Virus record (IMG/VR): IMGVR_UViG_2778261350_000002
Length of the DNA: 7,316 nt
Strand: one strand, 5' to 3'
DNA from: a virus
Lineage: Duplodnaviria; Heunggongvirae; Uroviricota; Caudoviricetes
Position 1 is the first letter of the stretch. Each line of letters starts with the position of its first letter. This document shows positions 1,131 through 2,574 of this stretch, one piece after another. The notes beneath the pieces are model-generated. The model did not search any database, was not told the DNA's origin, and saw only the letters and a program-made list of their open reading frames with translations. The position numbers and the translations under genes were made by a program.

Positions 1131-1553
1131 TTAGCCATCGGATAGGCGCTCTTTTGCCTCTTCGATTAAATCAGCACAAATAAGAGGTAGCTCTGATGAA
1201 ACGACTTCCCAGCCAGATTTTTTAACAACTTCATTTAACCACTCTTCTCGATCGTGAGTTCCTCTTCTTTTTTCTAGGAGGAAGATTTGAGAGTAAATCT
1301 GAATGGCCTTCTCGTTTAGATAAAACGCATATTGCCTGTTTAAAACAACATCTGCAAGTATATCAATGCCTTGTTGGGTTTTTGCCGCTACATCTGGCTC
1401 TACTCCCATACGAATAGATAAATCGCATAACTCAACAAATGCACGCTCTTCAGCGTCGTATTTCATTTTGTAAAAATGTGAAGCCAGTTTTTGCGTTTCG
1501 GCGAGTTCTGCCCTTAATTTTTTTATCTTGCTTCTCGTTAATATACCAAACAC
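1131..1553 (-). CDS. Hypothetical 140-aa helical protein; distal gene of the minus-strand cassette
   Basis: Part of track ORF 1131..1676(-). Preferred start is the in-frame GTG at 1553-1551, preceded by a near-perfect Shine-Dalgarno TAAGGAGG (reverse complement of 1559-1566) with a 5-nt spacer; this removes the 67-nt overlap with the upstream gene. Stop TAA at 1133-1131. No recognisable motif. Confidence 0.55.
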   Translation of the reverse strand: MFGILTRSKIKKLRAELAETQKLASHFYKMKYDAEERAFVELCDLSIRMGVEPDVAAKTQQGIDILADVVLNRQYAFYLNEKAIQIYSQIFLLEKRRGTHDREEWLNEVVKKSGWEVVSSELPLICADLIEEAKERLSDG

Positions 1554-1609
1554 ACCAGCCTCCTTAGTTTTGCGCAGGATACCAGATGATAATGTATTGG
1601 TGGATGGTG

Positions 1610-1963
1610 CTATTTTGTAACCAATGCGATAAACAGCGGGACAAGGATCGATGAAATCAATAGACCAATGAGCCATTTTTGATTCTCACTGACTTTGTCT
1701 CTATTTTCATCCATCTTATCAATAATTCGACGCTCCAAGCCATGCATATCACCGCGAATGGCAATCATCTCATTGCGAATATCCGAGATGAGTTTGCTCT
1801 GATTTTCAGCGATAGTCTCAATGCGGGTCATTCTACTGTTCATGTCTGATCCTCCTCCATTGCCACTACCAGTTGGTGTATGCGGCGGTTCATCACCAAG
1901 CGTGGCGAAATATTTACCAGAGAAGAGATTTTCAGCGTCATAAACGTTAGAACGTTCAGCCAT
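1610..1963 (-). CDS. Tail-anchored membrane protein (117 aa): polar N-terminal coiled-coil-like region and a single C-terminal transmembrane helix
   Basis: Track ORF. ATG at 1963-1961 overlaps the stop of the upstream gene by 8 nt (ATGGCTGA), with AAGGAG 10 nt upstream. N-terminal region has a Gly-rich linker (GSGNGGGS) and a charged helical stretch (RIETIAENQSKLISDIRNEMIAIRGDMHGLERRIIDKMDENRDK). C-terminus is WLIGLLISSILVPLFIALVTK, about 19 hydrophobic residues then a stop. The architecture resembles XhlA-like small membrane proteins; this is tentative. Confidence 0.65.
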   Translation of the reverse strand: MAERSNVYDAENLFSGKYFATLGDEPPHTPTGSGNGGGSDMNSRMTRIETIAENQSKLISDIRNEMIAIRGDMHGLERRIIDKMDENRDKVSENQKWLIGLLISSILVPLFIALVTK

Positions 1964-2327
1964 TACGCTCTTTCTCCTTAAGATACCAACTTAACACAAC
2001 TCCTGTGTTGTACTGCATGGTATAGCCACAATGTTTGCAAATGACGTGATAGCAATAATTGATTGGGTTGAATGTATGATTATCATCATCACCCTTTATA
2101 TATTTTTCGTAGTGAGCATGTCTCCCCATGACATCTTCTCCACTATCTTGGTTTATAAATTGAACTTGAGGGACAACCATCTCAGACATTCCACACATCG
2201 GGCATTCTTCTTGTACACCTTTTGCCCGAAGAAATGCGTCCAGCACCTTAGTGGTGATAGAAGACAACGCTGTGCGATACTCAGCTTCCCTCTTCTTTTC
2301 TTCTGTGATGTTTTGGTTATTGTTCAT
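1956..2327 (-). CDS. Zinc-ribbon protein (123 aa) with two CxxC knuckles
   Basis: Track ORF. ATG at 2327-2325 overlaps the mnt stop (TAA 2319-2317) by 11 nt. Two Cys pairs, CPMCG and CKHCG, lie about 52 residues apart. The first knuckle, CPMCGMSEMV, resembles the YgiT/MqsA-type zinc ribbon (CPVCHQGEMV, from memory); the longer spacing and lack of an HTH make that assignment tentative. Confidence 0.65.
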   Translation of the reverse strand: MNNNQNITEEKKREAEYRTALSSITTKVLDAFLRAKGVQEECPMCGMSEMVVPQVQFINQDSGEDVMGRHAHYEKYIKGDDDNHTFNPINYCYHVICKHCGYTMQYNTGVVLSWYLKEKERNG

Positions 2328-2574
2328 TTTTCTCGTTGCTATACACGCATTTCAACTTCTCAACATCACGCTCAAGATCTATCAATCGTGATGCTATAGT
2401 TGCAAGATCTAGTGCTTGAATGTGTTTATTTTTTTCGGTCCATGCTTCAAGTGCCGCGACCATCTCAGCATTTAATGAACGAGAATTAGCCTCAGCCAGT
2501 TCAATAAGACGTTCCTTTATCTCTACAGGAAGCCTCAGATTCACTTGAGGGTTTTTGTACTTACGATCAGACAT
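2317..2574 (-). CDS. mnt: Mnt-like ribbon-helix-helix repressor (85 aa)
   Basis: The translation ...KNPQVNLRLPVEIKERLIELAEANSRSLNAEMVAALEAW... fits the Arc/Mnt RHH pattern (NLRxP...AE.NGRS.N.E), and a C-terminal helical extension is present as in P22 Mnt (83 aa). Start is set at ATG 2574-2572, which has AGGA 7 nt upstream (reverse complement of 2582-2585). The track's GTG at 2580 is only 1 nt from that SD. It is divergent from the arc-ant pair, as in P22 immI. Confidence 0.8.
   Translation of the reverse strand: MSDRKYKNPQVNLRLPVEIKERLIELAEANSRSLNAEMVAALEAWTEKNKHIQALDLATIASRLIDLERDVEKLKCVYSNEKNEQ

Follow-up and report, generated by a model that had tools for sequence, protein, structure and literature searches.

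The DNA analysed here, called the window throughout, is a stretch of 7,316 nucleotides (nt) from the IMG/VR virus record IMGVR_UViG_2778261350_000002. It represents the immunity-I (immI) or 'ant moron' end of a P22-like prophage that is close kin of the K1-specific coliphage CUS-3. Along the window, the 3′ part of a gene-16-type ejection protein gene on the plus strand was followed by gene C, gene B, gene A, and an mnt-like repressor gene, all on the minus strand, and then by arc, sar, ant, and the tailspike gene (Table 1). This study concerns the interval 1131-2574, and mainly the gene pair A-B within it, which lies directly behind the mnt-like gene. A-B is a reasonable candidate for a new prophage-encoded phage-exclusion device.

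CUS-3 matched 63% of the window with 96.8% identity. The similarity flanked the interval on both sides, and inside the interval it covered mnt only; the A-B-C stretch is therefore exchangeable cargo. CUS-3 carries other genes at this place, so the moron trait of presence and absence among syntenic relatives was observed. Deviant base composition, another moron trait, was not: the GC content was 41.0% for the three genes, 43.1% for the window, and 43.9% for the tailspike gene. The earlier low-GC argument had used values of 38% and 55%, which came from unrepresentative 60-nt samples, and it was dropped. In P22-like phages this interval is named the 'ant moron' and was shown to be highly variable in 2008 (PMC2629481); in P22 it contains sieA, orf59a, and hkcC (P22 annotation; PMC2629481). 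The original prediction had placed the three genes in this variable sieA interval as cargo of the mnt operon, and this placement was upheld. The best explanation of 1131-2574 is cargo of the maintenance-repressor (Pmnt) operon that holds two unrelated accessory units, A-B and C.

The gene anatomy described earlier was confirmed in all its parts. The mnt-like gene and A overlapped by 11 nt on the minus strand, and A and B overlapped by 8 nt (ATGGCTGA), with AAGGAG located 9 nt upstream of the B start. Because it overlaps mnt, A-B in the window has no room for its own promoter. A spacer of 56 nt (1554-1609) separated B from C and held the strong Shine-Dalgarno (SD) sequence of C. The start of C was backed by its relatives, which were all about 140 amino acids (aa) long and aligned from residue 1. 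The long N-terminus of B and the 8-nt A/B overlap were kept in divergent relatives with 60-75% identity.

The mnt-like gene showed 97.6% DNA identity to CUS-3 ECRS218_0005. Its product had the N-terminal ribbon-helix-helix (RHH) alone in common with P22 Mnt (47% over 32 aa) and lacked the Repressor_Mnt C-terminal domain. CUS-3 has this gene together with an adjoining true Mnt (Arc plus Repressor_Mnt; positions 2871-3400 of its locus, L112). Upstream of the mnt-like gene, a Pmnt-like and a Pant-like promoter stood face to face, and this layout agreed with the annotated Pmnt and Pant of P22. The number of promoters in the scan was not above chance, and position is the argument for this call. A direct repeat, GGTACGCAT, was present in two copies read on the minus strand at 2630-2665, between the two promoters; its copies are probably operator half-sites. 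No terminator was predicted between mnt and the end of C. A hairpin between C and gene 16 was considered as a terminator and rejected, as it was weak (−4.3 to −4.9 kcal/mol) and no better than shuffles. In another P22-like prophage, the mnt region was transcribed while integrated in the host (PMC9928086). A paper on the Salmonella prophage transcriptome did not cover this region.

Table 1. Features of the window, and of compared loci (L numbers, in their own coordinates)
Feature	Position	Strand	Basis or remark
Gene-16-type ejection protein gene, 3′ part	27..1106	+	bounds the slot; annotated DNA transfer protein in CUS-3 and E. coli prophages
Gene C, 140-aa all-helical cytoplasmic protein	1131..1553	-	start GTG 1553; convergent to gene 16
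C Shine-Dalgarno TAAGGAGG	1559..1566	-	5 nt before GTG 1553, within the B-C spacer
Gene B, whole gene, 117 aa	1610-1963	-	
B core, coiled coil and C-terminal transmembrane anchor	1610..1849	-	phrog_6324 2.8e-20; PF10779 7e-4
B Gly-rich linker, G32-G38	1850..1870	-	codons spell GGAGGAGGA 6 nt before in-frame ATG 1843 (Met41)
B N-module, residues 1-31, variable peptide	1871..1963	-	alignments
Gene A, 123-aa acidic cytoplasmic C4 zinc-ribbon protein	1956..2327	-	CPMC 2193-2204, CKHC 2028-2039
mnt-like gene, Arc-family RHH repressor, first operon gene	2317..2580	-	ATG 2574 (PGAP) or GTG 2580; Pfam Arc 3.3e-10
Pmnt-like sigma-70 promoter, TTGATA-17-TATCCT	2603..2631	-	consensus scan
Pant-like promoter, face to face with Pmnt-like	2621-2649	+	consensus scan
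arc	2680-2820	+	
sar antisense RNA	2986-3052	-	Rfam RF00262, 83.9 bits, full-length
ant	3053-3988	+	start ATG 3053
Endosialidase tailspike, 981 aa	4089-7034	+	
X family or 88-aa protein replacing A upstream of B relatives	L126 2442-2894; L127 2487-2894; L128 2592-3008; L130 2573-3004; L129 2730-2996		
CUS-3 slot pair, 199-aa gene overlapping YafO-toxin-family 139-aa gene	L112 1825-2828		PF13957 3e-11
ST131-type prophage slot pair, 239-aa gene overlapping PIN-domain 182-aa gene	L003 (E. coli AZ146) 6551-7809		

Gene A belonged to PHROG 4293, a family with no function assigned. The protein had no transmembrane (TM) segment, and its cysteines C42, C45, C97, and C100 were invariant in the alignment of relatives. 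Apart from this family, the Pfam, NCBIfam, PADLOC, and PHROG profile libraries gave sub-threshold zinc-ribbon matches. A weak Lar match (E 0.0076) and a PADLOC match to a Cas10 fragment were rejected as noise. The PDB sequence search with A or C gave no match. The resemblance of A to YgiT/MqsA that had been suggested was not borne out: the PDB sequence search returned no MqsA chain even at E<=10, there was no such Pfam match, and A did not display the zinc-ribbon similarity with a C-terminal helix-turn-helix (HTH) that marks an MqsA/YgiT-type antitoxin. Relatives of A were also observed in genomes of ten further Enterobacterales species, including Yersinia, Pectobacterium, Brenneria, Serratia, Citrobacter, and Buttiauxella.

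Gene B had a modular build, consisting in order of a variable N-peptide, a Gly-rich linker, a nearly invariant Met, a coiled coil, and the segment DKMDENxKW followed by the TM helix. The N-peptide often ended in a D-[FY]-P-x-[HF]-like motif. The TM helix (residues 98-116 of 117; 1616-1672) was the only hydrophobic 19-mer of the protein, with a KD19 maximum of 2.61. The C-terminal segment, DKMDENxKW and TM, was almost invariant from E. coli to Klebsiella and Serratia, and it held most of the 22 invariant columns of the B alignment. The core of the window B contained a 7-aa insertion, NRDKVSE. Because of this insertion, it scored lower against PF10779 (20.1 bits, E 7e-4). The gathering score of 34.7 bits was not reached. 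PF10779 matches were obtained for 26 of 27 B relatives (best E 6.4e-8), and the printed scores of B and B-like proteins, 19.8-26.4 bits, were below the cut-off. Relatives with about 65% identity carry precomputed PF10779 matches and the NCBI name 'hemolysin XhlA family protein'. B also showed the build of XhlA: small size, a coiled coil in the cytoplasm, and one TM helix, at the C-terminus. As the window B was sub-threshold yet its relatives were matched and named as XhlA, we label B by sequence as XhlA-like and not as a proven member of PF10779. B belonged to PHROG 6324, again a family with no assigned function, and gave a weak match to the 'holin' family phrog_689 at 2e-5. The statement that the products match no recognised system thus needed correction, since B sits with XhlA-family proteins and both A and B fall into existing PHROGs. 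Matches of B to influenza HA2 in the PDB sequence search (E 7.5e-4) were rejected as coiled-coil composition.

The linker of B has a second aspect. In all 27 distinct linkers, GGAGG (21 of 27) or GGGGG was found 4-9 nt before the nearly invariant Met, and PGAP annotates the short form of B in E. coli E200086. A second, shorter B isoform starting from Met41 is possible, although the SD-like enrichment in the linker was weak once Gly codon usage was considered. P22 and lambda SieB-Esc is a case of a full-length effector and an in-frame truncated inhibitor made from one gene. B may similarly give two in-frame products, the long and the Met41 form, as judged from the SD-like motif and the conserved Met; SieB-Esc showed no homology with B. 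In two IMG/VR loci (L023 and L024) the B-like genes ended before the TM helix (115 and 99 aa) and A was intact. These shortened genes are possibly inactivated effectors.

The association of A with B was very consistent. The search for A in IMG/VR gave 77 loci encoding an A relative, and in 76 of them a B or B-like gene was located directly 3′ of A, usually overlapping it. In 53 loci the downstream gene matched the B hidden Markov model and overlapped A or lay within 4 nt of it. In 23 of the remaining 24, it encoded a divergent B-like protein with the same architecture; the exception (L079) had a fragmentary A. A-B was hosted by P22-like prophages, Salmonella siphophages of SPN3UB/S107 type, and Klebsiella and Enterobacter phages. 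At the DNA level, few E. coli genomes carried A-B (10 of the 5,426 complete ones). Near-identical A proteins were accompanied by the same B N-module, which was joined to three different coiled-coil/TM modules.

By these comparisons the B core is the constant part of the cassette, and the upstream partner varies between A, the X family, an 88-aa protein, or none. The X family (135-150 aa) was unrelated to A and accompanied the B core in Serratia, Pectobacterium, Leclercia, and a lambdoid contig. Its members were mutually related, with BLASTP E values between 9e-32 (closest pair) and 0.06 (weakest), and they shared an IAFLFPY-like N-terminus, no Cys, and no Pfam match. Partner-less B cores were found in Klebsiella (L123) and in E. 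coli remnants (L110 and L111), and the N-peptide and Gly linker were missing there too. The N-extension and linker of the B core were thus absent exactly when no partner gene was present. About 166 complete E. coli genomes carried an N-terminally truncated B core of 66-73 aa as an intact open reading frame. We read B as a constant membrane effector with a putative docking peptide for interchangeable soluble partners.

The two E. coli remnants are degraded podophage-like prophages located beside a PerC-family regulator gene. In both, the B core stood behind a 147-151-aa RHH-like protein with no A (L110 5999-6755; L111 5999-6722). The 73-aa core in L110 had the same NRDKxSE insertion as the window.

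The strongest clue to function is where the cassette lies. In the window and in its relatives from E. coli, the A-B pair overlapped the Arc-family mnt-like repressor gene. A Serratia P22-like prophage showed the order Mnt-X150-B adjoining gp16. In a Pectobacterium prophage, Arc was followed by divergent X138-B-75aa, again adjoining gp16, and in a Leclercia siphophage the order was Arc-X135-B. Two lambdoid contigs had a CI-type repressor (HTH and S24 peptidase) followed by a partner and B on the same strand; in lambda, rexA-rexB stand at this place. Lambda-like phages of Mannheimia have also been described as carrying a gene with an XhlA domain beside cI (PMC4553209). Across loci, the genes upstream of A were rich in antirepressor and repressor domains.

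In many siphophages, A-B was part of an immI-like insertion placed within the tail-gene cluster, immediately ahead of the tape-measure gene. This insertion contained Arc, Mnt, or HTH repressors and Ant, Bro, KilA-N, or Rha antirepressors. The siphophage copies of A-B had upstream of them a good intrinsic terminator (−13.2 kcal/mol, z −3.1) as well as a conserved leader of 85 nt, and therefore A-B looks like an autonomous moron there. The HK97 gp15 moron, said to have been described by Cumby et al. in 2012, is reportedly a superinfection exclusion gene next to the tape-measure gene. By that description, its small inner-membrane product is encoded amid the siphovirus tail genes, immediately upstream of the tape-measure gene, like many A-B copies; it differs in that gp15 works alone, with no partner protein.

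Exclusion systems such as lambda rexAB and P22 sieA are the established examples of lysogen-expressed genes co-transcribed with a repressor (PMC10883804). The RexAB type consists of a soluble and a membrane protein behind the repressor. A-B showed this arrangement in its gene order and overlaps, with predicted co-transcription, and a partner with B stood behind CI, Mnt, or Arc in other phages. The likeness to lambda RexA/RexB thus covers a soluble and a membrane protein directly downstream of, and co-oriented with, the lysogeny repressor, and in the lambdoid contigs B relatives and a partner occupied the exact post-cI position. RexB passes the membrane several times and B once, at its C-terminus, and the repressor here is of the Arc/Mnt immI type. 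There was also no sequence similarity to RexA/RexB, and A, B, and C gave no PADLOC match, with the Rex-model content of PADLOC 2.0 unconfirmed.

Taken with its recurrent position behind repressors, this suggests that A-B may be a RexAB-like, prophage-expressed two-component device made of a regulator and a membrane effector, a reading to which we give an even chance. In this device A and B would be made in the lysogen together with the repressor. A (or X) would be held on the N-terminal peptide of B at the inner face of the membrane, where it would sense or gate. On superinfection, the B core would act on the cytoplasmic membrane, either by holin-like permeabilisation, leading to abortive infection (Abi), or by a block of DNA entry. 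The lysogen population would thereby be protected, as with lambda RexA/RexB. The earlier proposal of a repressor-linked exclusion, Abi, or toxin-like role is therefore kept for A-B, where the comparative data favour it, and given up for a module of three genes.

A wider form of this proposal is held only tentatively. The XhlA-like B core might define an undescribed, widespread two-component exclusion or Abi family in the repressor operons (CI, Mnt, Arc) of temperate phages of Enterobacterales. Interchangeable partners would dock on the Gly-tethered N-peptide and set which invader is sensed, and the short internal-start isoform may modulate the effector.

Several results weigh against an exclusion function. 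None of the sigma-70 or terminator signals in the window exceeded chance in the consensus and terminator scan. In some siphophages (L123), B was located downstream of ant on the late-gene strand, and therefore expression in the lysogen is not guaranteed everywhere. The structure model of A was of moderate confidence, with a predicted local distance difference test (pLDDT) score of 71, and all Pfam XhlA scores scanned here were below the gathering threshold. A, B, and C searched against the PADLOC defence models at E<=0.1 returned nothing apart from the spurious Cas10 fragment for A. The only studied XhlA, that of PBSX, acts in host lysis and not in exclusion (PMC5589764). In the literature we found no experiment on any member, no paper mentioning the protein accessions, and no paper linking XhlA-like proteins to exclusion. 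The co-inheritance of A with the B N-module could also reflect recombination at the repetitive Gly-codon linker instead of binding, and a recombination hotspot at the Gly-codon repeat is the cheaper explanation of the modularity of B.

Among other explanations, a toxin-antitoxin (TA) or addiction cassette survives best, and we consider it unlikely. B would be a membrane toxin and A its antitoxin, and the pair would stabilise the prophage and not act on other phages. In line with this, the two genes are small and overlap, the soluble acidic product being encoded first and the membrane product second. At the equivalent position, CUS-3 and ST131 prophages carry a YafO-family and a PIN-domain pair, respectively. 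These type II TA pairs resemble A-B in being two overlapping genes between mnt and the terminal gene that are swapped as cassettes; no PADLOC system matched either pair. They differ from A-B in that A and B are dissimilar to them and the putative effector is a membrane protein and not an RNase. A and B were also unlike any known toxin or antitoxin family in the profile libraries and PDB sequences, and A had no recognisable DNA-binding domain. The intact partner-less B core in the roughly 166 E. coli genomes and in Klebsiella phages fits badly with an unneutralised toxin. TA and Abi functions are, moreover, not mutually exclusive.

A role as a lysis accessory is improbable. In this explanation A-B, like PBSX XhlA, would be the partner of a holin or an antiholin and would tune the timing of the phage's own lysis, with long and short B acting like a dual-start holin/antiholin pair. 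PBSX XhlA is a membrane protein of a Bacillus prophage; lysis requires it in addition to the holin XhlB and the endolysin XlyA (PMC5589764). The shared build, the XhlA-family similarity, the weak phrog_689 match, the GGAGG or GGGGG before the internal Met, and the late-strand copies of some siphophages are consistent with this role. However, none of the loci examined had B next to a holin, endolysin, or spanin gene; B stood behind Mnt, Arc, or CI repressors or antirepressors, and its neighbours were repressors, antirepressors, and ejection or tail genes. In the window A-B is translationally coupled to the lysogeny repressor, and the terminator insulates the siphophage copies from upstream transcription. 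The weakness of the SD-like enrichment in the Gly linker also argues against a dual start. Compared with PBSX XhlA, B has no XhlB holin or XlyA amidase as neighbour, is linked to a repressor and not to a lysis cassette, belongs to a Gram-negative host, and has in addition an N-terminal peptide, a Gly linker, and a partner gene of its own, with sub-threshold Pfam scores.

There is little probability that A-B is part of the secondary-immunity circuit, for example as a membrane-tethered modulator of the antirepressor, of Mnt, or of induction signalling. The persistent association with Arc, Mnt, Ant, Bro, KilA-N, and Rha genes in both podophages and siphophages points in this direction. Against it, A-B is lacking from many working immI regions, those of P22 and CUS-3 among them, relatives occurred behind CI repressors with no antirepressor nearby, and interchangeable partners fit cargo better than core circuitry.

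A single three-component system of A, B, and C, as the original prediction had it, is very improbable: common strand, adjacency, and the absence of a predicted terminator from mnt to the end of C speak for it, whereas the combination of A/B with C was found nowhere else searched. Conserved synteny had been set as the test of this module. None of the 5,426 complete E. coli genomes covered at least 80% of the interval, and profile searches gave no C in A/B loci and no A/B in C loci. Elsewhere, A-B was followed by hkcB or by a 75-aa protein, and C came after PIN, YafO-type, or other cargo or directly after mnt. The claim that three genes are coupled also failed for C, which is not overlapped, stands apart, has an SD of its own, and shows no link to A/B elsewhere.

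In E. coli E200086, mnt-A-B (99.6% identity) was followed by a different gene, which encodes a 75-aa protein with two TM segments. In ws5-3, an ST131 strain and six IMG/VR prophages, mnt-A-B (about 72-79% identity) was followed by hkcB. The count of loci with hkcB after A-B was 7, and the 75-aa two-TM protein was the other usual third gene in P22-like prophages. The 75-aa proteins of E200086 (L001 5776-6003) and of the Pectobacterium P22-like prophage (L128 3366-3593) showed 47% identity. C was common in other prophages at 95-99% identity, where it came after the 239-aa and PIN pair, after the 199 and 139-aa pair, after other small genes, or after mnt. The DNA homology of these C modules ended at about 1588-1609, at the B stop codon. 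The slot is thus a mosaic across E. coli prophages. Its middle position holds interchangeable two-gene cassettes (A-B, the 199-aa and YafO-family toxin pair of CUS-3, or the 239-aa and PIN pair), and its gene-16-proximal position holds C, hkcB, the 75-aa membrane protein, or, in P22, SieA.

On this evidence, C is an independent, stand-alone accessory gene unrelated to A-B. Its family was tiny, with 12 clusters among 1.84 billion representative proteins, and C matched no Pfam, PHROG, NCBIfam, or PADLOC family. The AF2 model (pLDDT 94.6) showed a long helical hairpin packed with shorter helices, and its fold matches were generic coiled-coil or helical-hairpin structures only. In P22-like prophages C was always convergent to and against the gene-16-type ejection gene, even for relatives with 35-52% identity. 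A few distant relatives occurred in other mobile-element contexts outside P22-like prophages; small open reading frames upstream of these looked spurious and were discarded.

C had no TM and a strong SD of its own, and P22 sieA likewise has its own promoter (P22 annotation). C also occupies the gene-16-proximal place that sieA has in P22. By this position, C is another candidate for a lysogen-expressed accessory gene. The whole cargo shares with the P22 'ant moron' the interval between genes 16 and 9, the mnt strand, and an expected expression from the prophage (PMC10883804; PMC2629481). SieA is a multi-pass protein, whereas A and C are soluble and B is single-pass. BLASTP of P22 SieA against A, B, and C gave nothing below E 0.3, the SieA motif FxRYPxEAxxFNK was absent, and A, B, and C showed no resemblance to orf59a.

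The rest of the window had the expected content of this prophage end. The sar RNA overlapped the arc-ant spacer up to the last base before ATG 3053 of ant, with its terminator hairpin at 2989-3020; the GTG 2987 listed as the start of ant therefore lies too far upstream. The tailspike, a K1 endosialidase, combines a head-binding domain of P22 type with a Peptidase_S74 intramolecular chaperone at the C-terminus and showed about 97% identity to CUS-3 siaK1. At 7189-7316, an ATG preceded 8.6 copies of the heptanucleotide AAGACTC (TCAAGAC), the phase-variable poly-psi tract of the O-acetyltransferase gene neuO. CUS-3 also has this tract, in 19 copies. The A-rich tail at 7249-7316 was outside the CUS-3 match and looks like a contig-end or read-tail artefact.

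Repressor-coexpressed prophage genes are a proven source of phage exclusion, as seen for RexAB, SieA, SieB, and BstA. The variable nature of the 'ant moron', described since 2008, and the protection that such cargo generally gives to lysogens are already known; cargo other than sieA has been left unstudied. Our literature search found no description of the A-B cassette, the modular B, the alternative partners, or the placement behind CI, Mnt, or Arc. If A-B has no exclusion function, it is ordinary uncharacterised moron cargo. The present analysis turns an anonymous trio into a defined unit with a predicted conserved membrane effector, a putative docking peptide, and swappable partners. This unit occurs in E. 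coli (K1 and ST131 lineages among them), Salmonella, Klebsiella, Enterobacter, and Serratia, as well as in plant pathogens. If phage exclusion is its function, A-B would affect the range of hosts open to therapeutic phages that target K1 E. coli and Klebsiella, and a new modular design would join the known defence architectures.

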